Assembly (NCBI GenBank): GCA_017466205.1 | Contig: JAFTUP010000199.1 | Location: 1-53,972 of the forward strand | Origin: Clostridia bacterium | Lineage (GTDB): Bacteria; Bacillota; Clostridia; Oscillospirales; Acutalibacteraceae | Direction of reading: 5' to 3' | DNA: 53,972 bases | In this document: positions 28,101 through 50,050 of the stretch, piece by piece | Numbering within the stretch: position 1 is the first letter of the stretch | Layout of the letters: every line of letters starts with the position of its first letter | The notes under the pieces: model-generated | Databases searched by the model: none | Told to the model about the DNA's origin: nothing | What the model saw: only the letters and a program-made list of their open reading frames with translations | Translations under genes and position numbers: made by a program

Positions 28101-30672
28101 GACGATTACCATTAGTTGTACTTTGAGCTTCAGCAGAATAGTTTGTGCCGGCATCAACATTTGTAATGAACTCAGTTCTTGTCCATGTCTGTATTGCTGA
28201 GATACCTGCGTTAGTAACACCGGGCAATACATAATAAAGTCCGTCATCGGCAACATAATATGTCCAAATCTTCTGGTGATATGTTCCACCTATACCCAAG
28301 AAACCGCCTGTTTTTGCCTGTGTATTAATAGCTACGTGAATTCGGTAATAGTTACCATCTGAGTGCTTGTAATATAACGCTTCATTGGTAAATGCGTATC
28401 CGTAAACACCGGTACCATTATCATCAGATGTTATCGACGTCGATGCCATCTGTGAAAGTGTTATGTCACCACTGTTTTCCTGAATACCTGTACCGTCGGA
28501 ACCGTCGTTAACAGATTCTGAAGTATCCATTACGATGATAAAGTCAGTAGGTCTTTCACCAACATACTGATACTGGTTTGGTGAAATTGCGTAAGTTTCA
28601 AGGTCGATAGTATATGTACCGTTAGACTGAAGCTCAGCCTGCATATCCGTATAAACACGGCTTTCGTAAGTTGTTGCAGTTTTGTCAACAACACGCTTGT
28701 AAATATAGAAAACACCATGGTCAAATGTTGTAACTTGGCCGCCCAATACGTTTGAACCTGTACCGTTCAAGCCGTCTGTATGGAATGTACCCGGCTGTTC
28801 TGTTACACCTGAATACATTGCAACGGTACTATCTGTATAATATTTATTATATGCGGTGTTATAGCTTTCTGTTGTACCGTCATTACACCAGAGGTAATAT
28901 CCGCCACCGGAAATGTAGAAGCCGCCTTTGCCGTTTTCCGCAAGAACCATACTTGTTCCGCGGGCATTATCCGTTGCCATTGCAATGCTTGTTGCATCAC
29001 AATAGAAATTAGGATAATTACTATAAGTATATTCATTATTCTTTATACTGTATGCACCGCTGCCCAATGAAGTTAATTCCCAACGAATATTTCTTACATC
29101 ATCTTTTTCAGCGTTGGTAAGGTAAAGCTTGCCACCTTCAACAGAATACTCAGTAATAGCGTGGCCGATTGCACCTGCATAACCGGCTGCATTATTCTGA
29201 TCACGCTTTGAAAGATTATAGTGCTGATAACCACCATGTGAATCGATTGCATAAAGAATAGGCATCTGAGTAACAGGATCCTTTTCAGATGATTCGTAAA
29301 CGATAATATAATCCTCACCGTCAACAATCTCTGAAAGGCTTGTTACAGGCTCATAATGAAGAGCATTATTATCCTCTGTTTTAACCATATTCTGAAGTGC
29401 ATAAGGGTCAATTTTCCAGATAACGTCAACCGGCTTTTCGCAGTTACCGATAGATGTTACTCCACTGCTTTCGTTCATATACTTATTTGAAGCACCTTCG
29501 AAAGTACAGAAAATAAGATCATTGATAACGCAAAGACCTTCTGACATAGGCATCATTTCATAGGTTTCATACTCTTCAATTACATATCCCTTTACAGTCT
29601 TTGTTGTGCTGTTATCACTGCTTGTGCTGATAGTCAGTTCCTTTGTAGGGATTGCACTAAGGTCAATATCAGAAACAATAAGCTTACTTGTTTCACCAAA
29701 GCCGAAGCTAACTGAGTTACCGGCACCTGAACCGTAAGAACAACTTAAATAAAGCTTACCGCTGTCAACAACCGCATACTGAACATCCTTGATGTTGTTG
29801 TTAAGAGCGATAGTATGAGTTGGATTGCTTCGGCTGTCAGTAGCACCACTCTTAAGGTTATTCCATTCTTCTTCAGATGTTGAACCCTGAAGCTTATAAC
29901 CGAAAACCATGGAGTTATACTGTGAGTTTGCAGGAGCATTATAATCGTCCGCTGCAATGGTCACACCGGCAAGCTTAGCACCTAAATCGTAGAAATTACC
30001 CATCCAAAGATAGCCTTGGTCATAGCAAACATAAGCAGTATAAGCAGTCTTACTGTCACTTGTTACAGAACCAACCTCGTAGAACTCAATTTCATCTACG
30101 AGCTGAACAACTCTATGTTCACCCTCTGCGATACCGTCAAGTGCTGAAATAGGAGCATAAGCAATACTTCTATCAGTATCACCACATGAGTAGTAAATAT
30201 TGTTTTCTGAGAAAGCAATACCGCCACCGTGGTCCATATTTACTGTACCGTCTACGTTAAGGAATGAAAGCATTGCAACGAAATCACCTGTTGCAGCATC
30301 AAGGCAGAATGCCTTACTGGAAGCTGTTCCATCATTATGGTATGCAGTAACAATCATCCAGTCCTTTTCAGGATAATATGTCATACCCTGAACAACGTAG
30401 TCCTGAGTAGCATTAAGACCCGGAATAACAATATCTGTTGCCTCACCGGCACCATTCAGATAATAGTTTTTGTAGTTTGCGTAGTCTGTTGCATAATCAG
30501 TAACAACACGCTCCTGCGTAATTGTTTCGTTTGTGCCGTCACTTGTTGTAATTGTGCCTGCAGCACCTACATCAATCTTCATAAACGGAAGACCGATAGC
30601 TACAATCCCTATAAGAATAGCGAATGTAAGCAACAAGGACATGCCCTTTTTTAACATTCTTTTCTTTTTCAT
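25156..30672 (-). CDS. 1838-aa secreted multidomain protein with a VWA (MIDAS) domain carrying a large insertion; adhesin-like
   Basis: GGAGGT lies 8 nt before the ATG at 30672 (MKKKRMLKKGMSLLLTFAILIGIVAIGL signal/anchor). VWA motifs are DFIIVMDTSES ... NRIAVTTYGGSA ... LAIIFMSDGVPG. Propeller-like, lectin-like and jelly-roll-like regions are present. There is no LPXTG. The C-terminus is DSIFAKISAFFKKLFASFANLF. Confidence 0.85.
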   Translation of the reverse strand: MKKKRMLKKGMSLLLTFAILIGIVAIGLPFMKIDVGAAGTITTSDGTNETITQERVVTDYATDYANYKNYYLNGAGEATDIVIPGLNATQDYVVQGMTYYPEKDWMIVTAYHNDGTASSKAFCLDAATGDFVAMLSFLNVDGTVNMDHGGGIAFSENNIYYSCGDTDRSIAYAPISALDGIAEGEHRVVQLVDEIEFYEVGSVTSDSKTAYTAYVCYDQGYLWMGNFYDLGAKLAGVTIAADDYNAPANSQYNSMVFGYKLQGSTSEEEWNNLKSGATDSRSNPTHTIALNNNIKDVQYAVVDSGKLYLSCSYGSGAGNSVSFGFGETSKLIVSDIDLSAIPTKELTISTSSDNSTTKTVKGYVIEEYETYEMMPMSEGLCVINDLIFCTFEGASNKYMNESSGVTSIGNCEKPVDVIWKIDPYALQNMVKTEDNNALHYEPVTSLSEIVDGEDYIIVYESSEKDPVTQMPILYAIDSHGGYQHYNLSKRDQNNAAGYAGAIGHAITEYSVEGGKLYLTNAEKDDVRNIRWELTSLGSGAYSIKNNEYTYSNYPNFYCDATSIAMATDNARGTSMVLAENGKGGFYISGGGYYLWCNDGTTESYNTAYNKYYTDSTVAMYSGVTEQPGTFHTDGLNGTGSNVLGGQVTTFDHGVFYIYKRVVDKTATTYESRVYTDMQAELQSNGTYTIDLETYAISPNQYQYVGERPTDFIIVMDTSESVNDGSDGTGIQENSGDITLSQMASTSITSDDNGTGVYGYAFTNEALYYKHSDGNYYRIHVAINTQAKTGGFLGIGGTYHQKIWTYYVADDGLYYVLPGVTNAGISAIQTWTRTEFITNVDAGTNYSAEAQSTTNGNRQNCKIYNGTYYKFITANENGYQTPMYTIKEKAADIVDQIAAEGSDNRIAVTTYGGSASYLNTSSSWATSGFTDALWSASNASTIKTQIANVASSGQQSDNTGMELQFAQNIVANSGSTYDADGDRNLAIIFMSDGVPGAYDGANITTAANNVIAKANTLKNTNGAFIYSIIVGADNDSWDKNTYMEAVSSKYPAATTLTSLGGGNIDGVEYVINMANTSMDNFLNFSSIAGREITKNEAVGLSNLSASSILFEELNEAFKPIADANGNLLDGITITTTLVEGNFDAVERFTFKGEEIVASTANVTTSVSDTRAISVTGYNYATEYVSQSKTGRKLKIKIEGVLADEDANITNTSINNTATTAIYKDTALTDAFKYFPTEYFNIPEYTYVLDYDMPMYDSDINGTLLSVDGGLNKQSTYKTTRETSNVALKFANSNLDMTYELVSGAYTEADNRSYCLIQRDDGTYDWFRINIVPASNVLFEEQRFTASTAGSLAKSNWTLDGTALETYQTLSGDNDRYGYDDVYASNGAGYSNGTVYKTTVNSTTKRSETMTFSYTGTGFDLMAACGKTTGIQMVNIKNAAGEIEKVFMVDTYYVDTENYDGALLKQVPIINYTNAGGYGTYTVEVTAAYLSTANALSGTRSSLAGMFNSDGYTVESLLKAMKIDVPADEIEYIWFNDNSILNGGTGPVAHTVSGTRATTTTDVELDCYIDGIRVYNPLGEDSSLYIDSEKGATYYNIVGELASGEGNTITSDSGLFAYVVGELAADENGNAQTLTFANYQSVGPQHELYLQKATDTDGSHAVAFNVTVPNADSRVMISLRAVDGATTTKVASGENAITFDINTATEQYFDITPYLDIDTTTGKANVIITNTGDGLLSVNNLKLVDATAQVVASEDLTLMAMSLSVEPTTVEPNSYDYNAVVDNNTQEPEVDVPDADEPSDDNGNNNNGGSVIEVPDVMDSIFAKISAFFKKLFASFANLF

Positions 30673-30804
30673 GTTCATTACCTCCATTTTTTTCAAATGA
30701 AAATATTTTTTACAAATTCGAAATCCGAATTTGCTTATTTCTTTGTTTATGTTCCGCGAAGACTTATAATAAGCACAACACGGTGCGGTTTTGCGTTTAT
30801 AAAT

Positions 30805-37634: not shown

Positions 37635-39689
37635 TTAATCTTCTTTTTTCTTTAACATAACTACAGATGTTGTCAATGCAACTCCACACACAGCAAGAGC
37701 TATTACAACTGATTTTGGCTGAAAACTATCTGTATCAGGAATTTCAACATCAGTTATTATCTCTTTGTTTTCTTCTGTTGTAGTTTCATCAACAACAGGC
37801 TTTTCTGTACTAATTTCCGTTTCAGTACTTTCAGTTGTTTCTTCAGGTTTTACTGTTTCTTCAGGAGCAGGAAGAACCTCTTCATTCACAGTTTTCTTTA
37901 CAAGATGTGAATAAATTTCCATATTTTCATCACTCATAGCGATAAAACTGAACTCTTTTGTTGCAATAGTATGCTGTGTATTATCAATTATGTATGTAAC
38001 AGCAACTTTAAAAGGTTTATCTGCAGTTTCAGGTGAAACATTGTTTACATCAATCACATATTTTTCACCAACCTGAAGTACTGTATTGATTTCGAAATTA
38101 TAGTCCATATCTACACCATTGACATCAACACAAAGAATGTGAATCGGTGATGTATTCGAGAGGTTTTCAATAATCAATTCTGTATCTGCAGAAGAATGAT
38201 ACCCTACATCAGTATTATCAAAATGCACATAAATATTATCAGCGTGCTTTTGTGTATAATTGAACTGTGGGAATCTTTCATCATCAAACACAGTTTCAAG
38301 TTCTCCCCAAAGATATTCACAGACAATCTGTCTTGTATATGGGTCATTAAAATACTGACCGTGAGCCTGACCTATTGCATACCATGTGTGGTCAGGTGAA
38401 AATCCTGTAGAAGCATCAAGGTTATATTCAGGTGAAATGTGATAATGATTTGGATTATCACAATTTATATTCTGTTGAACATAGTCGGCAGGTAAAGTTT
38501 CGCCTAAAGGAGTACAGTATGAGCCTGATGAAAGATGAGCATCAATAACAAGGTCACCATTATAATTCTGTCCGCTGACAGACTCGTATCCAACACCTAC
38601 AATATGACCTATTTTCATTCCCTCTTCACGGAGCTGTGCAAGCTTCTTTGAAAGATTATCGCCTGCAGCAAGATTTGTATGAAATTCAACAGTATCGTAA
38701 TACGCTTTTCCGTTTTCTTTAGCAGATAAACCTGTAAATTCAACTGCTTCTTCAAAATAATCATTAGGAATAAAATCAAGAAGAGACGGCATGTGTGCTG
38801 CTTTCATCACAAGCTCCTCATCACTTAAAACTCTGTTCAAAAGTGCAATAAGGTCTTCAAGAGTCAGATATTTAAATATCAGGTCAAAATCCTCTTCCAT
38901 ATCAAATGCATACTGAATCCATTTCATAAGATTCTGCATATCAAGGTCAAGAGTTTTTCCTGTAAACAGCTGTCCGACTACGGTTGTACCGAAGGTTGCA
39001 GGATTTGCAAGAATAGCATTTCTCACATCATGCTTATGACCGTAATAATAAAGGTATGATGTACCGTATTGACCTCCGTGGCTAAGTCCCATAAGGTCAA
39101 CCTTATCACTACCTGTAATTCCCTTTACCTCCTGAATGTATTCATCAATTGCCTTTGCATAATCAACCTGACTTTTTCTCCAGTCATAAGTAAAACCAAA
39201 CACATTTTCTGCACCAACCATTTCTATAGCGGTTTCACAGAATACACTTTCAGGAATATATTCCTCCATATCATTTTCAATGAGTGCAGAAATCTGTGTT
39301 GCAGCAGCACCTTTTGGATAATACGTAAGGTTTTCTCTTGAAGAACCATCAGGATTAACACCTATTGGAGCGAGAGCATCCTTAAGAATTTTTGACCACG
39401 CTTCTGCAATAGCATCATATCCCATTGCAGTACCTACAATACCTGCAGGCAAAGCTGCAACTAACTCTAAAATAAGTTCGCCAAGGTCAAGATGCCAGGC
39501 TTTGACAACATCACCTGTTTCAGAGTCGATTATAGGCTCGCCATTTTCATCTGTATAGACGAGTGTTGGTCCTGAATATCCCTGTAACACAATAACAGGT
39601 ACTACCTCTTCCTCTTTTGCAAATGCAAACAAAGAACAAGTTGAAAACACCATAATAACTGCAAGAATTACTGATAAAACCTTTTTCAT
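37635..39689 (-). CDS. Secreted LCAT-like alpha/beta-hydrolase lipase/esterase with a Thr/Glu-rich linker and a C-terminal TM anchor
   Basis: Signal peptide MKKVLSVILAVIMVFSTCSLFAFA. FGFTYDWRKS is a YDWR motif, and the nucleophile elbow is GLSHGG. The C-terminal helix is VVIALAVCGVALTTSVVML followed by KKKED. GGGGAAGG RBS lies before the ATG at 39689. Confidence 0.75.
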   Translation of the reverse strand: MKKVLSVILAVIMVFSTCSLFAFAKEEEVVPVIVLQGYSGPTLVYTDENGEPIIDSETGDVVKAWHLDLGELILELVAALPAGIVGTAMGYDAIAEAWSKILKDALAPIGVNPDGSSRENLTYYPKGAAATQISALIENDMEEYIPESVFCETAIEMVGAENVFGFTYDWRKSQVDYAKAIDEYIQEVKGITGSDKVDLMGLSHGGQYGTSYLYYYGHKHDVRNAILANPATFGTTVVGQLFTGKTLDLDMQNLMKWIQYAFDMEEDFDLIFKYLTLEDLIALLNRVLSDEELVMKAAHMPSLLDFIPNDYFEEAVEFTGLSAKENGKAYYDTVEFHTNLAAGDNLSKKLAQLREEGMKIGHIVGVGYESVSGQNYNGDLVIDAHLSSGSYCTPLGETLPADYVQQNINCDNPNHYHISPEYNLDASTGFSPDHTWYAIGQAHGQYFNDPYTRQIVCEYLWGELETVFDDERFPQFNYTQKHADNIYVHFDNTDVGYHSSADTELIIENLSNTSPIHILCVDVNGVDMDYNFEINTVLQVGEKYVIDVNNVSPETADKPFKVAVTYIIDNTQHTIATKEFSFIAMSDENMEIYSHLVKKTVNEEVLPAPEETVKPEETTESTETEISTEKPVVDETTTEENKEIITDVEIPDTDSFQPKSVVIALAVCGVALTTSVVMLKKKED

Positions 39690-39747
39690 TTTCCTTCCCC
39701 ATTTCAATATAATATAACTTTATTTTATTCCTTATAAAACTACTTGT

Positions 39748-39802: not shown

Positions 39803-40927
39803 TTACTCTGTTACTGACCAACCGAAGTTATATGTAATTGAAGATGTGCATGGGAACTCAACAACTACTGTACCGTAATCAGCCAATGCACCTGCGAAAG
39901 TAATGTTTGCTGTGATAATCATATTCTTTTCATAGGTTGCATAAGCCATTTCATCAGTTACAGCATTGATACCTGCTGTAATTTTGCAAGGAGTAAATGC
40001 AATTTCAAAGGAATTAAGCTTCATATAGCTTTCAGCAGCCTTGAACTGCTCCATAATTCCGTCTTTTTCACGAACTGTAAATGCCTTTTTAACACTTGCT
40101 TCTTCAGGCTTAACTACCATACAAATTGTTCTGTAAAGCTCTGACGGAACGAAAATATATTCGCCTTCTTCGTCTTCAGCATTGTTACCCTTTTCATCAA
40201 GGTCATAAACAAGAGTAGGAACTACTGATGTATAAATCGGATATGTGTTAGTTTCCTTGTCTGTATAAAGGTCAGCAAGAGTAAGAGTACTTGCATTCTT
40301 TTCACCAATAGGATAAATAATATCAGTGAGGTCAGCACCTTTTTCAACAATTTCCTCTGAATTCATAAGGAATGAATCAATGTTTTCAAGTGCCATATCA
40401 GCATAAAGACGGAATGCTGCACGGAACTTATCCTGGTCAGGGAGCTCAACACCGTCAACTGACTTGAACACAACACCGTCACCGTGATTAATCCAGAAAG
40501 CTTCATCGTAAGAAACAAAAGCAGTTTTATTCACCTTAATGTCATTGATTAAGCCGTTGAAATAATCAAGAACTTCCTGCTGATTTCCTGTAAACTGTGC
40601 CCATTCTTCCTCAGTAATAAGAGCAAGAATATCTTCAAAATAATCTTCTGAGCCGTATTTTGAAACAAGCTCATAATATGAAAGCTCAACTTCTCTATCA
40701 TCTAATTTTTTATTGAAGTTTTCATAAAGTGTTGCAAGCTTGTCACCAGGAAGAATTTCCTTTAATTCTCCGTAAGTGAATACGAATGAAACATCCTTAA
40801 GGTCTGTTTTTGATGTAACAGCAACCGGTCTGTTAACCTCAGTTTCACCGCTGCAGCCTGCAAATGTTCCTATAAGCATTGTAAACGCTAACACAAGTGC
40901 GATAATTCTTATAAAATTCTTTTTCAT
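39803..40927 (-). CDS. Lipoprotein of unknown function
   Basis: MKKNFIRIIALVLAFTMLIGTFAGCSG is a lipobox FAGC. The mature part is acidic. Confidence 0.7.
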   Translation of the reverse strand: MKKNFIRIIALVLAFTMLIGTFAGCSGETEVNRPVAVTSKTDLKDVSFVFTYGELKEILPGDKLATLYENFNKKLDDREVELSYYELVSKYGSEDYFEDILALITEEEWAQFTGNQQEVLDYFNGLINDIKVNKTAFVSYDEAFWINHGDGVVFKSVDGVELPDQDKFRAAFRLYADMALENIDSFLMNSEEIVEKGADLTDIIYPIGEKNASTLTLADLYTDKETNTYPIYTSVVPTLVYDLDEKGNNAEDEEGEYIFVPSELYRTICMVVKPEEASVKKAFTVREKDGIMEQFKAAESYMKLNSFEIAFTPCKITAGINAVTDEMAYATYEKNMIITANITFAGALADYGTVVVEFPCTSSITYNFGWSVTE

Positions 40928-42379: not shown

Positions 42380-43201
42380 ATGAAAAAAAGACAGTTAAAA
42401 ATCCGCGGAACACTTTTAATATCACTTATAATAATTTTAGGCTCACTTTTAATCCTTTATTTTGCATTTTGTCGTGGTGGTGAATATAATTCTGCACCTA
42501 TTACAACCACAAAAGTTGAAACTACAACAGAACAAACAACAGAGCCTGTTGTGGAAGAAAGTACAGAAGCACCCACAGAGCCTGAAGAAGAAATTACGGA
42601 AGAGCCGATTATCTGGGACAATTACAGTCCTGTAAGCATTCTCAAGAGTGAAAATTGGGCTTTGACACTTATCAACAAGAAATATCCTCTTGATAAAAAC
42701 TATTCACCATCAACAGCAACCGTGGTTGAAGGCAGCTCAGTTACTGCTGATGTCCGTGTTGCAGAGGCTTATCGGCTTATGTACAACGCTGCATTGGCTG
42801 AGGATGTTGTCCTCACTCCATATTCAGGATATTGCAGTTATCAGAGACAGAAAACAATTTATGATAATAAGGTTCAGGCATTTATTCTTCAGGGACTCAC
42901 TGAGGATGAAGCAAAATTAAGTGCTGAAAAAAGGGTTGAACCTGCAGGCTGCAGTGAAAACGGAGCAGGACTTGCAGTTGATGTAATCAGCGCAAGTGCA
43001 GGATTCTCATCAACCAATGAATATAAGTGGCTTGTGGCAAATGCTCATAATTATGGTTTTGTACTTCGTTATCCTGAAGACAAAACTGAAATCACAGGTA
43101 TGATTTATCAGCCATGGCATTGGAGATATGTTGGTATTGAGGTCGCAACAGAAATGAAAGAACAAAACCTCTGCCTTGAAGAATTTTTGGGTGTAGTGTA
43201 A
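42380..43201 (+). CDS. VanY/M15B-family D-alanyl-D-alanine carboxypeptidase, membrane-anchored
   Basis: MKKRQLKIRGTLLISLIIILGSLLILYF is the anchor, followed by a Thr/Glu-rich linker. SGYCSYQRQ, SENGAGLAVD and QPWHWRYVG are present. The ORF-track TTG at 42308 is unlikely to be the start. Confidence 0.8.
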   Translation: MKKRQLKIRGTLLISLIIILGSLLILYFAFCRGGEYNSAPITTTKVETTTEQTTEPVVEESTEAPTEPEEEITEEPIIWDNYSPVSILKSENWALTLINKKYPLDKNYSPSTATVVEGSSVTADVRVAEAYRLMYNAALAEDVVLTPYSGYCSYQRQKTIYDNKVQAFILQGLTEDEAKLSAEKRVEPAGCSENGAGLAVDVISASAGFSSTNEYKWLVANAHNYGFVLRYPEDKTEITGMIYQPWHWRYVGIEVATEMKEQNLCLEEFLGVV

Positions 43202-43224
43202 AAACAATTTGATAATACAACGAT

Positions 43225-43255
43225 ATGGCGAGGTCAAAACCTCGCCATTGTCATT
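43225..43255 (+). terminator. Terminator after the VanY-like gene
   Basis: atggcgaggt (43225-43234) pairs with acctcgccat (43239-43248), followed by tgtcattt. Confidence 0.6.
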
Positions 43256-43260
43256 TAATA

Positions 43261-43700
43261 AGTAAATCACGCGTAGTGGCAGGCTTCCATGCCTGCATTG
43301 TTGTCATTCTGAGGAGTATAACGACGAATAATTTCTGTTGGTTGAAATGTTGCCTTGGGAGGAGATTCTTCGCTACGCTCAGAATGACCGGGAAAATCAA
43401 TATAACTTGACAAATTATAATTTGTCGGGATGATTAAACAATTTGATATATATTGGTAGGGCGGGGTCTTGACCCCGCCGCCGTTGGTTGATATGTCGCT
43501 TTTCGGCGGGGGGTGCGGGTGTCCAGTGGACACCTCTGCGAAGCAGAAGCACCGACCGAACCGGCAGGTGAGACACAAGACCCCGCCCTACCGTGATATC
43601 AATTGGTTATATTTTAAATCAGCGTCGCAGACCCTACAATTCCGAATTACGCATTACGAATTTCGAATTATCCCGATAAACTCCAATTTTCCAACCTCTA
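43261..43700. repeat. Composite block of GC-rich palindromic repeats
   Basis: Contents: 43270-43296 (inverted copy of 33757-33783); gtcattctgag 43303-43313 / ctcagaatgac 43378-43388; 43410-43433 (copy of 37561-37584, containing the 18-nt perfect palindrome gacaaattataatttgtc); 17-nt perfect inverted arms ggtagggcggggtcttg 43455-43471 / caagaccccgccctacc 43576-43592; hairpin ggtgtcc-agt-ggacacc. Confidence 0.75.
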
Positions 43701-43778
43701 CGAAATGACACATAAATATTGTATTTCCTATCAAAATATGATAAAATAACTTGATAATATGTTTTTGGAGGAGTTATT

Positions 43779-44447
43779 ATGATGAAAATTTCACCATCTA
43801 TTCTTTCTTGTGACTACGGAAGAATGGCAGAAGAATTAAAGGATATGGAAAACTGCGGTGCTGATTATATGCACATTGACGTTATGGACGGTCACTTTGT
43901 TCCCAATATCACATTAGGTGCTCCTCTTATAAAATGCATCCGTAAAGCTACTGATGTACCTTTTGATGTTCACCTTATGATCAGCGAGCCACTTAAATAC
44001 ATTGACGATTTCTGTAAGGCAGGTGCTGACATTATCACTTTCCATACAGAATGTGACTCACCAATTGACGAAACAATCGACAAAATTCTCGCTAACGGTG
44101 TCAAAGCATCACTTACAGTTAAACCAAAAACTCCTGTTGAGGATATTTTCCCATATCTCGACAAGCTTTCAATGGTGCTTATTATGACCGTTGAGCCCGG
44201 TTTTGGCGGACAGAGCTTTATGGAAGATATGATGCCAAAGGTTTCTGCATTAAGAAAAGAAATTGAAAAACGAGGTCTTAACTGCGAAATCGAAGTTGAC
44301 GGTGGTATAAACGAAAAAACAATCGCTATTGCAGCTAATGCAGGCGCTGATGTTTTCGTTTCAGGTAATGCTATTTTCTCAAGCGCTGACCGTAAAGGCA
44401 CAATCGAAAACTTTAAGAAAATTGCAGAAGAAAATTATTGTAAATAA
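43779..44447 (+). CDS. rpe: Ribulose-phosphate 3-epimerase
   Basis: ISPSILSCDYGRMAEELKDMENCGADYMHIDVMDGHFVPNITLG and MTVEPGFGGQSF are present. A GGAGGAG RBS precedes the start. Confidence 0.93.
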   Translation: MMKISPSILSCDYGRMAEELKDMENCGADYMHIDVMDGHFVPNITLGAPLIKCIRKATDVPFDVHLMISEPLKYIDDFCKAGADIITFHTECDSPIDETIDKILANGVKASLTVKPKTPVEDIFPYLDKLSMVLIMTVEPGFGGQSFMEDMMPKVSALRKEIEKRGLNCEIEVDGGINEKTIAIAANAGADVFVSGNAIFSSADRKGTIENFKKIAEENYCK

Positions 44448-44956
44448 ACCTTACCAAGATTTTTGCAGTATTCATTTAACCATTCGTAGCTGATATTTTC
44501 ATATTTTTCTCCATATTCCACCATAAGCTGACAAATTCTGTCACTTTTTTCAGGAACAAATAAAAAATAGTTATTTTTTAACTTAAACGCTTGGCAGGAA
44601 ATATTTTTTTCATAATAAATTCCCGCAACCTTTATAAAATCGAGAAAATCATCAATATTATCAGCCTTAAAAACAACAAAATCCTTATTGGTCTTTATTT
44701 TATAACGGATTTTTTCTTTGCTTGTGAATGTAAAAATGAAAAAGCAACCGCCATTTTCCGTAGGCATTGCTTCAACAAGCACCTTATCACCCTTTGAAAA
44801 TCTTTTTTCGGCATCTATTCTGTATAAAAGCTTTTTCAATAACGCTTGTGTTGTTTCATTGTTGTTCAGCGTTGCGTATGTAATATTAAAGCTTTTCATT
44901 TCGTCTCCTGAAAGTTCAACAAGCATTACATTATTATTAAGTGCTTCAAATGTCAT
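44435..44956 (-). CDS. Short MecA-like adaptor protein
   Basis: The architecture and motif order resemble MecA: the N-terminal beta-hairpin region MLVELSGDEMKSFNITY, and a C-terminal domain FVVFKADNIDDFLDF ... NNYFLFV ... LMVEYGEKYENISYEWLNEY. Confidence 0.55.
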   Translation of the reverse strand: MTFEALNNNVMLVELSGDEMKSFNITYATLNNNETTQALLKKLLYRIDAEKRFSKGDKVLVEAMPTENGGCFFIFTFTSKEKIRYKIKTNKDFVVFKADNIDDFLDFIKVAGIYYEKNISCQAFKLKNNYFLFVPEKSDRICQLMVEYGEKYENISYEWLNEYCKNLGKVYLQ

Positions 44957-45056
44957 AATTACTACTCTCCCTGTTGTACTTTGTCTTCTATTTCATAATA
45001 TTACAGGGACTGGCTGTGTGCAATAAATAAATATTGGAAAAAGTGAGGAACATATT

Positions 45057-46211
45057 TTGACAGACACAAATATCCCTCAAAATTCAATAGATGAAGCAAA
45101 ACGTTCAGTAACCCTTGATTATATTCTTATGCTGTGCGTTCCGCTGGCTGTGGCTGTTTTCAACCACGGTCTTACTGCTATGTTCAACTGCACATTTTCA
45201 TTTTTGACCTGTTATTTACTTGTAAAATTGTCAAAAAACTTCCTTAAAACAGAATTCCCGCCAAAAGCTCCGCAAATTTTTATTATCGCTGTAAGCGTTT
45301 CATTACTTTTACCTGCAGCATCACCCTGGTGGATGACAATATTAACATCAGCCTTTGCTATAGGAGTCTGCGTACTACCATTCGGCAACCTTGAAAATGC
45401 TCCGTTTGTTCCGTCAGCTGCTGCAATATGTTTTGCATCACTCTGCTGGAATGATGTGGTATATAATTATTCTGATGTGGGCGATTCCTTAGGAAAAATG
45501 CTCCTTTTCGGCAATTCTATCGGCAAAAATCTTGTTGCAGTTACAGAAGCACTTGTGGGAAGTGTTCCGTCAGCTATGGGAACAGGCTGTATTCTGGCAC
45601 TTATCGGTGTGTTGATTTTTGTTATAATCCGCAGACCAAAGGACTCAATCGCACCAATCTGTTTTATTCTATCAGCAGGAATTATTTCTGCACTTTTCCC
45701 AAGAGTTTCAACAGGCATAGCTATCTCAGTTGTTATGGAGCTTTCTTCAGGTATGCTACTTTTTGGTGCAGTTTTCTTTTTATCAGCACCGACGATTGCT
45801 CCGAAACGACCGCTTTCAAAAGCTGTCTGGGGATTTGTCGGCGGTATTATCTGTATGCTTGTAAAATATGTAAGTCCCCTTGAGGACAGCACCTGCTTCA
45901 GTTTTTTGATTATTTGTGCAATTTCAGATTACTTTGATAATCTTCCTCTTACACTCAATGAAAAGCGAAGAATTAAGGCACAGGAGCCTTATATTGAAAT
46001 CGAGCCTGTAGCGTCAGTTGTTCCTGAAAAAATTCTTGAAGAAATTCCTGATATGACTATCCGCGAAATAATTGAGCAGACAGATGAGCCTGAGGAAACA
46101 GAAGAACAGTCTTCCTATGAAAGCGAAAGTCTTGAAGCAGTGGTATCTGAAGAAAATACACTTACAGACTCAAAAGCACCTTTTGTAATGGGAGGTGGCG
46201 ATGATGAGTAA
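45057..46211 (+). CDS. RnfD/NqrB-like polytopic membrane protein lacking the FMN-attachment Thr, with an acidic C-terminal tail
   Basis: Homologous blocks are SAFAIGVCVLPFGNLENAPFVPSAAAICFASLCW, MGTGCILALIGVLIFVIIRR and SGMLLFGAVFFLSAPTIAPKRPLSKAVWGFVGGIICMLVKY. The TTG start has GTGAGGA 6 nt upstream. Confidence 0.75.
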   Translation: MTDTNIPQNSIDEAKRSVTLDYILMLCVPLAVAVFNHGLTAMFNCTFSFLTCYLLVKLSKNFLKTEFPPKAPQIFIIAVSVSLLLPAASPWWMTILTSAFAIGVCVLPFGNLENAPFVPSAAAICFASLCWNDVVYNYSDVGDSLGKMLLFGNSIGKNLVAVTEALVGSVPSAMGTGCILALIGVLIFVIIRRPKDSIAPICFILSAGIISALFPRVSTGIAISVVMELSSGMLLFGAVFFLSAPTIAPKRPLSKAVWGFVGGIICMLVKYVSPLEDSTCFSFLIICAISDYFDNLPLTLNEKRRIKAQEPYIEIEPVASVVPEKILEEIPDMTIREIIEQTDEPEETEEQSSYESESLEAVVSEENTLTDSKAPFVMGGGDDE

Positions 46212-47151
46212 TAAAAATTCAACCTTAAAGACGATTCGTAACAGTGCACTTATTAAAAATCCTTTGCTTTTTGAAGCAATAGGTCTTTGTCCTGTTGTTG
46301 CTATTGCTCAATCATTGAAGCTTGCGGTTTTCCTTGCGGTTGTTACTGCAGTTGAACTTGTTGTATGCGAGGTTCTTGCTTCAAAATTCCTTAAAAATGT
46401 CCGTCGTTACTGGCGAGTTGCTCTTTATACAGTTTTTGGTGTAGCAATTATTTTTCCGACAATGTATCTTACAAACAAGATTTTTCCTGATTTATCAGCT
46501 AACTTTGGTGTTTATCTTCCGCTTATGGCTGTTAATTCACTAATCGCACTTCATTGTGAACGTGTGGCAGTTAAAAACGATGTTAAAACAAGCTTTATTG
46601 ATGCTGCCTCTGCTGCGTTGAGCTACGGTGTGGTTGCAATTATAGTTGGCTTTATCCGTGAACTTCTGGCAAACGGTACTGTATGGGGTCACAGCCTTAA
46701 TACTCCTGTTACTCTCTCTGCATTTTCAATGCCCTTTGGCGGACTTATCCTTATGGGATTTCTGGCAGCAGGACTTAAAGCTTATATAAATGTTAAATTT
46801 CCCGAATCAAATCCTGACAAGGCATTTGACACATCTGAAATCAGGCGTTCTCTCCGGGATAATTTTATAAATCTTATGAAGGATGATTTCAATCCTTACG
46901 GAGATTCTGCTGAAGAGGATATTAAAATCTACAATCCGGGCGATAAGTCAGCAAAAGCTGAAAAAAATAAAAAGTCAAAGAAAAGTAAAAACAGTGTTGA
47001 TACTTCTCCTGAAACCGCCTCTCCTGTTACTGAAAATCCTGAAACTGAAAAACGAAGAACATATCTTGATGAATTTTCAGATATTCTTTCAGACCTTGAA
47101 GAATACAAGAACAAAAACAAGTCTGATGATAACGGAGGTGACGGAGAATGA
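46201..47151 (+). CDS. RnfE/NqrD-like membrane protein with one of two conserved Cys lost and a ~110-aa hydrophilic tail
   Basis: NPLLFEAIGLCPVVAIAQS and FGVYLPLMAVNSLIALHCERVAVKN ... FIRELLANGTVWG are present. The ATG at 46201 lies inside the upstream gene, preceded by GGAGGTG. Confidence 0.75.
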   Translation: MMSNKNSTLKTIRNSALIKNPLLFEAIGLCPVVAIAQSLKLAVFLAVVTAVELVVCEVLASKFLKNVRRYWRVALYTVFGVAIIFPTMYLTNKIFPDLSANFGVYLPLMAVNSLIALHCERVAVKNDVKTSFIDAASAALSYGVVAIIVGFIRELLANGTVWGHSLNTPVTLSAFSMPFGGLILMGFLAAGLKAYINVKFPESNPDKAFDTSEIRRSLRDNFINLMKDDFNPYGDSAEEDIKIYNPGDKSAKAEKNKKSKKSKNSVDTSPETASPVTENPETEKRRTYLDEFSDILSDLEEYKNKNKSDDNGGDGE

Positions 47152-47741
47152 GTGTGATTTCAGAGCTTCTTTCTGCAGCACTTTATGTTATGCTGTTCCA
47201 GAACCTCATCTTCAACGGTGGTTATGGCTTGAGCGAAGCTGTTCGTATGAGTGCAAAACCGCGACAGCTTTTCCCGATGGCTGTTTTTATAACACTTTTT
47301 TCAACTGTCACATCCGCAATCTGTGTACTTGTTGACCTTTTCCCTGTTGTAAAAAATCTTAACGAGATTACTCATGCGCTTATTTATGTTGGTATTCTCC
47401 TTCTAATTTACATTATAATAATGATTGCTGTCAATATTTACGGTAAAGTTCAGCCTGCAACAAAACGCAGAATCGGTATAGCTGCCTTTAATACTCTTAT
47501 TTTTGCAATACCTCTCATTAATTACCGTTCAGTTTTCTCAATTGTTGAATCAATCGGTGCGGGTCTCGGTGCAGGTCTTGCTTATGTTATTGCTGTTCTT
47601 CTCATTAACAGCGGTCTTAAAAAACTTGACAGCAACACAAATATTCCGAAATGCTTCAAGGGTACTCCTGCAATTTTCATTTATACTGCAATTTTATCCT
47701 TGGCTTTTTCAGGTATTTCCGGCACATCAGTATTTATTTAA
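47148..47741 (+). CDS. RnfA/NqrE-like membrane protein lacking both conserved Cys
   Basis: The C-terminal block NIPKCFKGTPAIFIYTAILSLAFSGISG matches RnfA. The ATGA start/stop overlaps the upstream gene, and GGAGGTG lies upstream. Confidence 0.7.
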   Translation: MSVISELLSAALYVMLFQNLIFNGGYGLSEAVRMSAKPRQLFPMAVFITLFSTVTSAICVLVDLFPVVKNLNEITHALIYVGILLLIYIIIMIAVNIYGKVQPATKRRIGIAAFNTLIFAIPLINYRSVFSIVESIGAGLGAGLAYVIAVLLINSGLKKLDSNTNIPKCFKGTPAIFIYTAILSLAFSGISGTSVFI

Positions 47742-47753
47742 AGGAATTTTATT

Positions 47754-48887
47754 ATGGCAAAAAACGACAACAATCAACGTCATCTCAAGGGATATTACAG
47801 ATTTTCAAAAAAATATCCTTCCCGACGAGGAGAACGACCTATCCACGAAAGCCGTAAGGCTAAAAAAAGAGAACGCATCAGAACAGCTCTGTTTTGCGTG
47901 TTTTTGTGTTGCCTCTTTGCAGGAATTTTTATTTTTGCGAAATTCTGCTATAACCTTTCAACCCGACCTCTTGATGACAATGTAATTGAAGAAGCTCCAA
48001 CAATTACAGCTGATAATCTCGGTACTGTCCGTGCAACATATCTTCAGAACGATATTCTTGACGATATCGGCAAGCTTAATGAGTTTCTTGATACCGCAAA
48101 AGAAAACGGATTTAATTCAGTTTTGCTTGATTTCAAAACTCAGAAAGGTATTTTAACCTATTCATCAACGCTTATGCCATATTCTGATGACGAAGATTAT
48201 GTTGAAATTGATGTTTCAATTATTGAACGGATAAAGCTTGAAGGCTTTTTAATCCTTGGCAGAATTTATTGCTTTGAAGACACTGTCGCTCCTCAAAGGC
48301 TTAATGCTTATGTATTTGAAAATGCAGAAAAAACAAGAATATGGTTTGACGATTCAGCAATTACAGGCGGTAGAGTGTGGCTTGACCCAACAAATTCCAA
48401 ATCCGTAAAATATCTCACATCAGTAATCAACGAAGTTACTGAACTGGGAGTGGACTGTATCTATCTTGACTCTGTTCAGTTCCCTGAATCACGGGCAGGT
48501 GCTGTTCCTGTTTATACAAAGGACGATGCAACACTTAACAGAAATCTTGTCCTTATGCAATTTATTGAAAAAGCAGTTGCTTCTGCAAACGGACGACCTG
48601 TTATTTTAGGTTGTCCGATAGAGTGTACCGATGGCGGTAACACAGAAAAATGGGGAGGAACACTTTTCGACTCTGCCGCACATATCTGCTCACCGTTTCT
48701 TGAAAATCCCGGAAACAGTGACTTTATCTCATATATCGAAAACACTTATATTGTTCTTAACAATAAAGCACAGAACAACTTTTCAACCGTAAAAGTCATT
48801 CCGACTATTAAATTTCCTGTGGAAAATCTCGATTTTTACGAAAAAATATCCTCAAGCAAGGCAGAAAGTTATATAATTCTTCCTTGA
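47754..48887 (+). CDS. TM-anchored DUF4015/GHL-type putative glycoside-hydrolase-like protein
   Basis: Basic N-terminus plus TM helix ALFCVFLCCLFAGIFIFAKF. The TIM-barrel-like blocks are VRATYLQ, GFNSVLLDFKTQKGILTY, RVWLDPTN and GVDCIYLDSVQFPE. Confidence 0.65.
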   Translation: MAKNDNNQRHLKGYYRFSKKYPSRRGERPIHESRKAKKRERIRTALFCVFLCCLFAGIFIFAKFCYNLSTRPLDDNVIEEAPTITADNLGTVRATYLQNDILDDIGKLNEFLDTAKENGFNSVLLDFKTQKGILTYSSTLMPYSDDEDYVEIDVSIIERIKLEGFLILGRIYCFEDTVAPQRLNAYVFENAEKTRIWFDDSAITGGRVWLDPTNSKSVKYLTSVINEVTELGVDCIYLDSVQFPESRAGAVPVYTKDDATLNRNLVLMQFIEKAVASANGRPVILGCPIECTDGGNTEKWGGTLFDSAAHICSPFLENPGNSDFISYIENTYIVLNNKAQNNFSTVKVIPTIKFPVENLDFYEKISSSKAESYIILP

Positions 48888-48901: not shown

Positions 48902-48930
48902 TTGAAATACAATTAATTTTATTGTATTAT
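48902..48930 (+). promoter_or_regulatory. Putative promoter of efp
   Basis: TTGAAA (48902-48907), 17 nt, TATTAT (48925-48930). Confidence 0.4.
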
Positions 48931-49570: not shown

Positions 49571-49999
49571 ATGATGACAGTAACAGAAAAAGTAGCATAT
49601 CTCAAGGGTCTTGTTGAAGGTCTTGACTTTGACAAGGACGATAAAGAAACAAAAGTTATCAATGCAGTTCTCGATGTACTTGAGGACCTTGCACTTACAG
49701 TAAGTGACCTTGATGACGAAATGGCTCTCGTTACAGAACAGCTTGATGCTGTTGACGAAGATTTAGCAGACCTTGAAGAAATCTTCTACGATGAATGTGA
49801 CGACTGCGATTGTGACTGTGACGATTGCGACTGCGATTGTGATGAGGATATGTATGAGGTTGAATGTCCTAACTGTGGCGAAATGATTTACTTTGATGAA
49901 GAAATCATTCTTGACGGTCAGGCTGAATGTCCTGCATGCGGTGAAACACTCGAATTCGAAACAGAATGCGAATGTGACTGCTGCGAAGACGAAGAATAA
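49571..49999 (+). CDS. Acidic zinc-ribbon protein (CD1247 N-terminal-domain-like) with a (Cys-Asp)n tract
   Basis: EKVAYLKGLVEGLDFD is the N-terminal pattern seen downstream of efp in Clostridia. CDDCDCDCDDCDCDCDED is followed by CPNCG...CPACG. A GGAGG RBS precedes the start. Confidence 0.7.
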   Translation: MMTVTEKVAYLKGLVEGLDFDKDDKETKVINAVLDVLEDLALTVSDLDDEMALVTEQLDAVDEDLADLEEIFYDECDDCDCDCDDCDCDCDEDMYEVECPNCGEMIYFDEEIILDGQAECPACGETLEFETECECDCCEDEE

Positions 50000-50022: not shown

Positions 50023-50050
50023 GGACTACCGTTTTGGTAGTCCTTTTTTT
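50023..50050 (+). terminator. Rho-independent terminator of the efp operon
   Basis: ggactacc (50023-50030) pairs with ggtagtcc (50036-50043), followed by TTTTTTT. Confidence 0.8.

Follow-up and report, generated by a model that had tools for sequence, protein, structure and literature searches.

The subject of this analysis is a group of four open reading frames (ORFs) that follow one another on the plus strand at positions 45057-48887 of a 53,972-nucleotide contig (JAFTUP010000199.1, assembly GCA_017466205.1) from a Clostridia bacterium of the family Acutalibacteraceae; the whole of this stretch is referred to as the window. In the ORF list of the 54-kb window, the four encode an RnfD-like, an RnfE-like and an RnfA-like protein and a protein with a DUF4015 domain. 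On the evidence assembled here, the module is very probably a redox-dead, Rnf-derived core of D-, E- and A-like subunits joined by a DUF4015 partner, and one copy of an operon that is widespread among the Oscillospirales. The locus comprises the following features.

44435..44956, minus strand: MecA-like adaptor gene, 173 amino acids (aa), PF05389 48.9 bits against a cutoff of 22.5; divergent from the D-like gene
44990..45050, no strand assigned: intergenic block TTCATAATATTACAGGGACnGGCnGTGTGCAATAAATAAATATTGGAAAAAGTGAGG between the MecA-like and D-like genes, conserved among relatives; likely a shared promoter/operator, and includes the ribosome-binding site of the D-like gene
45057..46211, plus strand: RnfD/NqrB-like membrane protein, 384 aa, TTG start, PF03116 E 1.1e-35
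46186..46194, plus strand: Shine-Dalgarno sequence GGGAGGTGG inside the 3' end of the D-like gene, serving the overlapping E-like gene
46195..47151, plus strand: RnfE/NqrD-like membrane protein, 318 aa counted from GTG, PF02508 E 1.7e-29
47132..47141, plus strand: Shine-Dalgarno sequence ACGGAGGTGA inside the 3' end of the E-like gene, serving the A-like gene
47148..47741, plus strand: RnfA/NqrE-like membrane protein, 197 aa, PF02508 E 3.8e-15
47754..48887, plus strand: membrane-anchored DUF4015 protein with a glycoside hydrolase (GH)-like TIM barrel, 377 aa, PF13200 E 4.7e-20

The D/E and E/A reading frames overlap, and the DUF4015 gene begins 12 nt past the stop codon of the A-like gene. The A-like ATG, which lies 7 nt behind ACGGAGGTGA, shares its bases with the E-like stop codon as ATGA, and the E-like protein probably starts at the ATG at 46201 or 46204 rather than at the GTG at 46195. 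Among relatives, the GGAGG(T)G-N-ATG-N-stop layout of the D/E junction recurs in most lineages, and the four-nucleotide overlap of the E stop and the A start was found in 12 of 15. Given these embedded Shine-Dalgarno sequences and frame overlaps, the D, E and A genes are translationally coupled. A C-terminal 'GGxD/GxE' common to the D and E tails and to distant members was considered as a protein motif or degron and rejected: the DNA encoding it is the embedded Shine-Dalgarno sequence of the next gene.

All three membrane proteins exceed the gathering cutoffs of their Pfam families (123.9 bits for the D-like protein against PF03116, and 103.5 and 56.8 bits for the E-like and A-like proteins against PF02508), and the AlphaFold2 (AF2) model of the D-like protein matches RnfD (7zc6_D) with a Foldseek template-modelling score of 0.77. 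Scores against the NCBIfam Rnf equivalogs are 3-4 fold under their cutoffs: 58.1 bits for the D-like protein against rnfD (TIGR01946, cutoff 207), 70.8 bits for the E-like protein against the rnfE model (cutoff 213) and 52.0 bits for the A-like protein against rnfA (TIGR01943, cutoff 229). The Nqr equivalogs are weaker still (nqrB 26.8 against 349.9 bits, nqrD 53.2 against 244.9, nqrE 28.4 against 247.6). Because the Pfam matches are clear but the NCBIfam scores fall so far under cutoff, the trio consists of true homologues of Rnf/Nqr subunits and not of orthologues. Pfam scans of the other ORFs in the window detected no RnfC, RnfG, RnfB or ApbE gene and no NqrA, NqrC or NqrF gene. A sequence-only reading of this stretch had described three overlapping D/E/A homologues without C, G or B partners in the window, followed 12 nt later by a membrane-anchored DUF4015-like gene; the PF03116 match, the two PF02508 matches and the negative scans bear out the first part, and a PF13200 match and a single transmembrane (TM) helix the second.

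The cofactor ligands were located in pairwise HMMER alignments to solved Rnf chains of C. tetanomorphum, A. woodii and A. vinelandii and Nqr chains of V. cholerae, and in a family MAFFT alignment with canonical sequences included; column counts come from 20-23 non-redundant family sequences. In the D-like protein, 'SDVGDSLGK' stands opposite 'DGVTTATPL' of canonical RnfD. The column of the flavinylated Thr, which carries flavin mononucleotide (FMN), falls on Asp143 in the family alignment or on Leu145 in the pairwise phmmer alignment, and residues 137-150 contain no Thr at all. Across the family this column holds Thr in 11 of 23 sequences and otherwise Asp, Ala, Met, Ile, Val, Leu, Lys or Glu, and the Ala of the (S/T)GAT flavinylation motif is not conserved. 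A near-invariant Ser of the clade, Ser144, was considered as a substitute site and is an unlikely one, as its column is that of the Pro/Ala after the flavinylated Thr in canonical sequences and the motif Ala is missing.

The [2Fe-2S] cluster, which RnfE and RnfA ligate together, has fared no better. The first cluster Cys of the E-like protein is kept as Cys32 (GLC32P) and the second is Ser115 ('VNC' having become 'VNS115'); in the A-like protein both are replaced, by Ser29 ('GLC' to 'GLS29') and Thr116 ('TNC' to 'FNT116'). One of four cluster Cys is thus left in the window trio, and relatives lose Cys32 as well: the first E column reads Cys in 13 sequences, Phe in five, Ala in four and Ser in one (n = 23), so that 10 of 23 have Phe, Ala or Ser. 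The second E column reads Ser in 13, Pro in six and Ala in four, with no Cys (n = 23); the first A column reads Ser in 16, Asp in two, Gly in one and Tyr in one, again with no Cys (n = 20); and the second A column reads Thr in 19 and Cys in one, an outlier locus (n = 20). Judged by these columns, the family conserves none of the redox ligands. The residue calls of the sequence-only reading (an FMN site reading SDVGDSLGK without Thr, an E-like protein with GLCP kept and the second Cys motif lost, and an A-like protein with both Cys motifs gone) stand in every case, the alignments to the Pfam profiles and the solved structures proving sound. Its conclusion that the trio cannot run the canonical electron relay is supported too, and the ligand-column losses and low NCBIfam scores extend it to the family as a whole.

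The window trio belongs to a large group. A word-index search with the D-like protein gave 188 matches, the best 120 of which were mostly about 385 aa long, and a HMMER search of 1.84 billion cluster representatives gave 752 clusters at E<=1e-3, 258 at E<=1e-10 and 41 at E<=1e-30. Since canonical RnfD reaches no more than about 39 bits with the D-like query and several hundred sequences match it better, these proteins form a distinct subfamily. Named members come from Candidatus Fimivicinus, Ca. Fimenecus, metagenome-assembled genomes (MAGs) of Acutalibacteraceae and Oscillospiraceae, and MAGs labelled Clostridiales or Lachnospiraceae bacterium, a distribution that points to the Oscillospirales, mainly, and to gut communities. 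Several clusters abound in human gut metagenomes. One A-like sequence occurs on more than 700 contigs, and one cluster of DUF4015 partners has 2,193 members.

Gene order is conserved along with sequence. Relatives at 46-71% D-like identity carry rpe, a MecA-like gene on the opposite strand, D, E, A, DUF4015, efp and a gene for a Cys-rich acidic protein. A metagenome scan with a profile of intermediate members yielded 80 loci, the ORFs of which were searched with the window proteins, and the order MecA-like(-)/D/E/A/DUF4015 persists where D-like identity to the window is only about 30-35%. More than 80 independent loci show this arrangement, far beyond chance. D-E-A was present on the available contig in 17 of 21 non-redundant lineages, and DUF4015 lay directly after A in 13 of the 16 that have at least 1.3 kb downstream. 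One of the loci (L092) has D-E-A-DUF4015 followed by unrelated genes (Ldh_2, AP endonuclease), an independent context, and in the most divergent one (L008) the gene after A begins like the DUF4015 protein. The MecA-like gene stands divergently upstream in essentially all loci with flanking sequence, including L090, L091 and L036-type loci, in the last of which phmmer had missed it; its PF05389 scores reach 64-67 bits in L014 and L018.

No rnfG, rnfB or ApbE gene was found near the trio in the 10-kb flanks of any relative. That orthologous loci might routinely carry adjacent rnfC, rnfG or rnfB genes had been foreseen as a difficulty; G and B were never seen, and a truncated RnfC-like gene occurs only in two deep-branching loci, L090 and L091, which read MecA-like(-)/RnfC-like/D/E/A. 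The RnfC-like proteins (L090 7926-8981 and L091 1588-2814; 351 and 408 aa) score 103 and 140 bits against rnfC (TIGR01945, cutoff 246) and have SLBB and two 4Fe-4S motifs with a degenerate 51K (NADH/FMN) domain; the D proteins of the same loci score 175-195 bits against TIGR01946 (cutoff 207). Their trios lack both E-like Cys and the flavinylation motif, and keep the second A-like Cys, with the first kept also in L090. These sequences suggest that a canonical Rnf operon, already situated beside mecA, decayed step by step: G and B would have been lost first, then the ligands and then C, with DUF4015 recruited early. The role of an Fe-S RnfC-like subunit on the L090 and L091 cores is puzzling, as these cores have no electron path.

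These intermediates bear directly on whether the trio might be a redox enzyme still, either with RnfC/G/B-type or other partners encoded elsewhere or with unconventional ligands or cofactors. Such a view could draw on the RnfC-like Fe-S protein kept upstream in the deep-branching relatives, on the Thr present at the FMN column in 11 of 23 sequences together with a new, near-invariant Cys in the E-like protein, and on a published metabolic scheme in which 'rnfDEA' is counted as a putative Rnf operon (PMC10781979). However, a [2Fe-2S] cluster needs four Cys, of which the window has one and the family no invariant one, and the RnfC-containing intermediates had already lost both E-like Cys and the flavinylation motif. 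With the Ala of SGAT absent, a Thr column that tolerates Asp, Lys, Met and Leu, no RnfG, RnfB or ApbE nearby in any locus, and equivalog scores far under cutoff, a surviving redox function is very improbable.

The loss of cofactor ligands and the very low Rnf equivalog scores would also be expected of a non-functional remnant, that is, of decaying pseudogenes of a duplicated rnf operon. The ratio of nonsynonymous to synonymous polymorphism (pN/pS), computed from 15 closely related strains of one human-gut lineage, was 0.095 for the D core and 0.075 for the D tail, 0.099 for the E core and 0.42 for the E tail, 0.176 for A, and 0.083 for the DUF4015 domain and 0.153 for its N-terminus plus TM helix; the comparison gene rpe gave 0.025. 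Reading frames are intact and lengths conserved in more than 80 loci, and since the few split ORFs fall in assemblies in which rpe is split too, they probably reflect sequencing errors and not decay. Values of about 0.08-0.18 for D, the E core, A and the DUF4015 domain signify purifying selection, so the concern that the genes are pseudogenes with frameshifts in relatives does not apply. Set against intact frames, pN/pS of 0.08-0.18, gained motifs and preserved translational coupling, the chance that the locus is a remnant is negligible.

What selection has preserved includes the ion path. In RnfE of A. woodii, the ion pair R67-E115 constitutes the cytosolic Na+ gate, R67 lying in the TM2-TM3 loop at the cytosolic Na+ entry, and the substitutions R67A and E115K abolish autotrophic growth; at the buried Na+ site beside the cluster lie N112 of RnfA and, from the TM4a/b loops, backbone atoms (PMC11889175). 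The equivalent of RnfE R67 (Arg74 in the window) is Arg in 23 of 23 family sequences, that of E115 (Glu122) is Glu in 22 of 23, that of N107 (Asn114) is Asn in 22 of 23, and that of RnfA N112 (Asn115) is Asn in 20 of 20. Other residues have been gained: the half-helix directly after the lost A-like Cys carries Glu30 (18/20) and Arg33 (19/20) within 'GYGxSEAxR', and the E-like protein has Cys121, adjoining the E115 equivalent, in 22 of 23. To go by the alignments, the path for electrons has been lost and the gate for ions kept, and a charged pair sits in the cluster's place. A 'repurposed membrane scaffold or ion path', as the trio had been called from its sequence, gains direct support from gate and site residues that are kept in 20/20 to 23/23 sequences, or 22/23 for E115 and N107.

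Both the D-like and the E-like protein continue beyond the membrane. The D-like core spans about aa 15-309, and the tail past its last hydrophobic segment is about 90-109 aa long, acidic, and opens with a Lys/Arg cluster; in the AF2 model the disordered part runs from about aa 310 to 384 with a sole helix at 359-366 (LEAVVSEE), which matches the last of three motifs of the clade, EPYxEI, VVPxEILxEIPD and ESESLExVISEEN. The E-like tail, a polyampholyte with the motif YLDEFSDILSDLEEY, is about 124 aa, slightly longer than the 90-110 aa originally estimated for both proteins, an estimate that holds for D. Elsewhere in the family, tails of 100-430 aa are again found on E-like proteins, and near the end of these lies a similar amphipathic helix of acidic character; the hydrophilic tails on the RnfD-like cores of the subfamily range from none to about 480 aa. 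RnfE crosses the membrane six times and its R67 is cytosolic, which puts the C-terminal tail of the E-like protein in the cytoplasm; the topology of NqrB would place the D-like tail there as well. Some members, among them P0352 (encoded at L091 2807-5212), P0313 and the product of L087 1120-2991, have very long tails: in D-like proteins of 657-801 aa these are K/E/A-rich and coiled-coil-like, and in one E-like protein of 623 aa the tail is rich in Ser/Thr. The tails of the family thus differ in length more than 20-fold, and core length is constant.

Tails of this kind might be taken to mean that the trio is a passive scaffold, a non-conducting platform that would anchor the DUF4015 enzyme and recruit MecA/ClpC, division or sporulation proteins. 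In its favour are the short conserved helices of the tails, which nearly all members possess at lengths of 20-480 aa, the conserved adjacency of the MecA-like gene, and the precedent of NqrA, an Rnf-derived subunit kept without cofactors (2025 Rnf/Nqr review). Yet near-invariant buried gate residues and a gained Glu/Arg pair are hard to reconcile with an inert scaffold, and the membrane cores are as strongly selected as the enzyme domain, the E tail being much more relaxed. A purely passive role is therefore rather unlikely.

The fourth protein of the module matches PF13200 with 72.4 bits (cutoff 27) over profile positions 3-189 of 313, that is, the first two thirds. It has one TM helix (Kyte-Doolittle segment 44-62, AF2 helix 34-70), an extracytoplasmic barrel from about residue 90, and a strongly basic, cytoplasmic N-terminus that carries a conserved GYYxFSKKYP...ESR peptide; the general form of this peptide, (S/G)YYxF(S/R)KxYP...ESR, is common to the trio-linked partners and absent only in L092. 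The AF2 model, an N-terminal TM helix followed by a beta/alpha barrel, has a mean predicted local distance difference test score (pLDDT) of 63, with 80-90 in the barrel core. Its sole sequence relative in the PDB is 4S1A (Cthe_0052, an uncharacterised DUF4015 protein; E 4.7e-9), which also ranks first in Foldseek, ahead of C. difficile Cwp19, GH31/GH36 alpha-glycosidases and the C-terminal domain of PgaB. The window protein and 4S1A share the TIM barrel and the motifs K128, CFxD176, WxD199, WL(D/N)P212, D234 and FP244, which include residues of an active-site type and are conserved in the trio-linked partners. We know of no DUF4015 member with demonstrated activity.

Two published observations indicate where such an enzyme might act: the GHL10 domain of Cwp19 is a peptidoglycan lytic transglycosylase (PMC6016235, PMC5765458), and DUF4015 stands in for polysaccharide deacetylase domains where these are fused to the YkyA domain (PMC12700454). 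The second-best structural match of the window protein is thus proof that peptidoglycan lytic transglycosylase activity can reside in a GH-like barrel of this clan; Cwp19 differs in belonging to another Pfam family and in being bound to the wall via CWB2 repeats, the window protein being TM-anchored and equipped with a cytoplasmic peptide. The conserved motifs and the model suggest that the DUF4015 protein is an active envelope-glycan enzyme whose cytoplasmic end would dock to something. The sequence-only reading had taken a hint of an envelope or polysaccharide role from this operon partner; the DUF4015 link is real (13 of 16 lineages), and the role itself continues to be read from the fold and from domain-fusion hints.

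In the canonical Rnf mechanism, Na+ affinity rises when the A/E cluster is reduced; bound Na+ sets off the inward/outward switch of RnfA/E, and this switch moves RnfG, an external subunit with a single TM helix (PMC11889175). We propose tentatively, at rather less than even confidence, that the module of the window is a conformational device, coupled to an envelope-glycan enzyme, that conducts or senses ions independently of redox chemistry. The inverted heterodimer of the E-like and A-like proteins would still be an alternating-access pathway for Na+ or H+, with the Arg-Glu gate and the two half-helix Asn, and the buried Glu/Arg pair of the A-like protein (with Ser/Thr and the new E-like Cys) would replace the [2Fe-2S] cluster that controlled ion affinity. 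With the cluster so replaced, the switch would be driven not by electron transfer but by the binding of ions or their flow down the membrane gradient. The DUF4015 protein would take the place of RnfG, having the same topology (N-terminus inside, one TM helix, domain outside), and the complex may link the energy state of the membrane, or a signal from the cytoplasm, to how active this enzyme is or where it sits as it cuts or remodels peptidoglycan or a wall polysaccharide. The acidic helices of the D-like and E-like tails and the YYxFSKxYP peptide of the DUF4015 protein could serve as cytoplasmic docking or regulatory sites, for which the MecA-like/ClpC system is a possible partner. In its most specific form the proposal describes a mechanotransducer, driven by ion-motive force or sensing ions, in which a Glu/Arg-controlled rocker-switch actuates a wall glycan-cleaving enzyme and the tails dock a MecA/ClpC-type system; so much detail taken together is possible but doubtful. 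Ion conduction, the substrate and the direction of coupling are the parts of this account that we infer.

The same architecture could be read differently, with the trio acting as a solute carrier, either ion-coupled or a facilitator, that imports sugars or muropeptides released by the DUF4015 protein, in the manner of AmpG, or that exports a glycan precursor, or flips it across the membrane, for the enzyme to process. The RnfA/E pair is built like an alternating-access symporter (2025 Rnf/Nqr review), the D-like protein has the RnfD/NqrB fold, which is distantly like that of Amt and urea channels, and the cavity that the cluster once filled is lined by new polar or charged residues (Ser, Thr, Glu, Arg, Cys); an outside glycan-cleaving enzyme and a membrane carrier in one operon would also follow a common logic. 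But that cavity is small, no substrate-binding protein and no sugar-catabolic or recycling genes are conserved beside the operon (rpe and efp are housekeeping genes), and long regulatory-type tails and an N-terminal peptide on the enzyme are atypical of simple permeases. The trio is, moreover, kept in lineages without an adjacent DUF4015 gene. A transport function is accordingly a possibility that we hold to be doubtful.

Several observations weigh against the proposal of a redox-independent device coupled to an envelope enzyme. RnfA E88, a member of the canonical ion-pair network, is not retained in the family. The DUF4015 gene is missing beside the trio in one sub-clade (L012, L014-L016; three lineages), where NifS/ThiI or other genes take its place, and also in L090, and a physical complex of the DUF4015 protein with the trio is something we infer. 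The model of the DUF4015 protein is of moderate confidence (mean pLDDT 63), and its nearest characterised neighbour, Cwp19, lies in a different Pfam family, which makes the substrate a guess. The link to MecA consists of gene adjacency, and much of the synteny from rpe to efp could stem from phylogenetic inertia inside one order. Finally, Thr at the FMN column of the D-like protein in about half of the lineages, together with the new near-invariant Cys of the E-like protein, makes an unconventional cofactor possible.

In comparison with Rnf itself, the trio has homologous D, E and A subunits in the same D-E-A gene order and keeps the R67-E115 pair and the half-helix Asn; it differs in lacking C, G and B in the window, the flavinylation motif and three of the four cluster Cys, and in having added the D and E tails, the A-like Glu/Arg pair and the DUF4015 partner. 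With Na+-NQR it shares the families and folds of the membrane subunits, and NqrA offers a parallel for the loss of cofactors from an Rnf-derived subunit, but NqrA, NqrC and NqrF, the cofactor ligands and quinone chemistry are all missing from the trio, and its equivalog scores are negligible. A resemblance to FtsEX would lie only in the proposed logic, in that a non-transporting, transporter-derived complex signals to an external wall hydrolase; the two are not homologous, and FtsEX is driven by ATP, as against the ion flow or cytoplasmic partners proposed here. Targeted literature searches found no description or function of such a module, and the 2025 Rnf/Nqr review is silent on it, in keeping with the earlier impression that none had been described.

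What these searches did return is a transcriptome paper on Faecalibacterium duncaniae A2-165, in which an orphan 'rnfDEA' set (CG447_09840-09830), annotated as a second putative rnf operon, is listed beside canonical rnfCDGEAB and both are treated as energy-conserving (PMC10781979). This set, from a cultured member of the same order, probably belongs to the same family; by GC content, none of the loci compared here comes from Faecalibacterium. If the set is a member, its report suggests that a cultured relative has the trio in addition to a genuine Rnf, and its treatment as energy-conserving would run against the present analysis.

As to the expression of the module, the intergenic block at 44990-45050 is probably a shared regulatory (promoter/operator) region of the MecA-like and D-like genes, to judge by its conservation. 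Some 55 nt of it are near-identical in L001, L002 and L007, and partly so in L003 and L005, with flanking proteins only 50-65% identical, and it contains a minus-strand match to TGCACA-16-TATTAT and the inverted repeat CAATA-N6-TATTG. An RNA leader or riboswitch was considered for this block and rejected (folding z -1.1, no Rfam match). No intrinsic terminator was predicted from the D-like start to 50023, and a single strong one, a bidirectional hairpin, lies at 50023-50043 behind the Cys-rich gene. A promoter-like site precedes efp at 48902-48930; in total, sites of this kind are about as many as chance would give. The Cys-rich gene (49571-49999, plus strand) encodes a 142-aa, very acidic protein rich in CxxC/CDC with no Pfam match, and lies directly past efp in all close relatives (L001-L007).

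Besides rpe, the MecA-like gene and efp, the window contains a polysaccharide-synthesis cluster (514-24731) and radical-SAM, amylase, M28 peptidase and VanY genes. The cluster, on the minus strand, encodes GT1/GT2/GT4 glycosyltransferases, an EpsG-type polymerase, a Stealth protein, acyltransferases, an ABC-2 exporter, a 763-aa pyruvyl-transferase/FrhB/4Fe-4S fusion, Wzz/ParA-like proteins of the tyrosine-kinase type and an Ig-like surface protein. A functional link between it and the trio was considered and rejected, as relatives show no synteny between cluster and module. Between the cluster and the radical-SAM gene lies an ORF of 1846 aa without a Pfam match (25156-30696, minus strand). Genes for a 690-aa protein and a 374-aa putative lipoprotein (37635-39707 and 39803-40927, minus strand), likewise without Pfam matches, adjoin the M28 peptidase gene, and the same three genes occur together in L005 and L006. 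The interval between VanY and rpe is a gene-free gap of 578 bp (43202-43778), compared with about 115 bp in L005; 17-nt direct repeats (43201-43217 and 43743-43759, 88% identical) border it, and it holds a 24-nt inverted repeat (43448-43471 and 43576-43599, 88% complementary), a structure that may represent a small inserted element resembling a miniature inverted-repeat transposable element. In two of the relatives, a 449-aa, N-terminally anchored protein is encoded near a trio without DUF4015 (L014 6998-8347 and L015 4618-5967, both minus strand); we take it to resemble the spore germination protein YpeB, which would presumably hint at spore formation.

Annotation pipelines label the three membrane genes 'RnfABCDGE type electron transport complex subunit D/E/A', and this Rnf annotation is very probably wrong for the family as a whole, which affects reconstructions of energy metabolism in many Oscillospirales MAGs from the gut. 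What these genes represent is, instead, a previously unrecognised, widespread, cofactor-less branch of Rnf cores with a new partner and a function that is probably related to the envelope. The family amounts to an exaptation of the core of a respiratory complex, from C-D-G-E-A-B through C'-D'-E'-A' to D''-E''-A'' with DUF4015, of which intermediates are extant. It is also a natural experiment on the ion route of Rnf/Nqr: the RnfE/A gate is kept without redox chemistry, and conduction through the A/E pair becomes testable free of redox coupling. If the mechanotransducer proposal were true, the module would be a natural cofactor-free mutant showing that RnfA/E, and not RnfD, is the ion path, and it would belong to a new class of machines for envelope remodelling that is confined to a major group of gut Clostridia. 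For abundant anaerobes of the gut, the family points to a highly conserved and so far uncharacterised function of the envelope.

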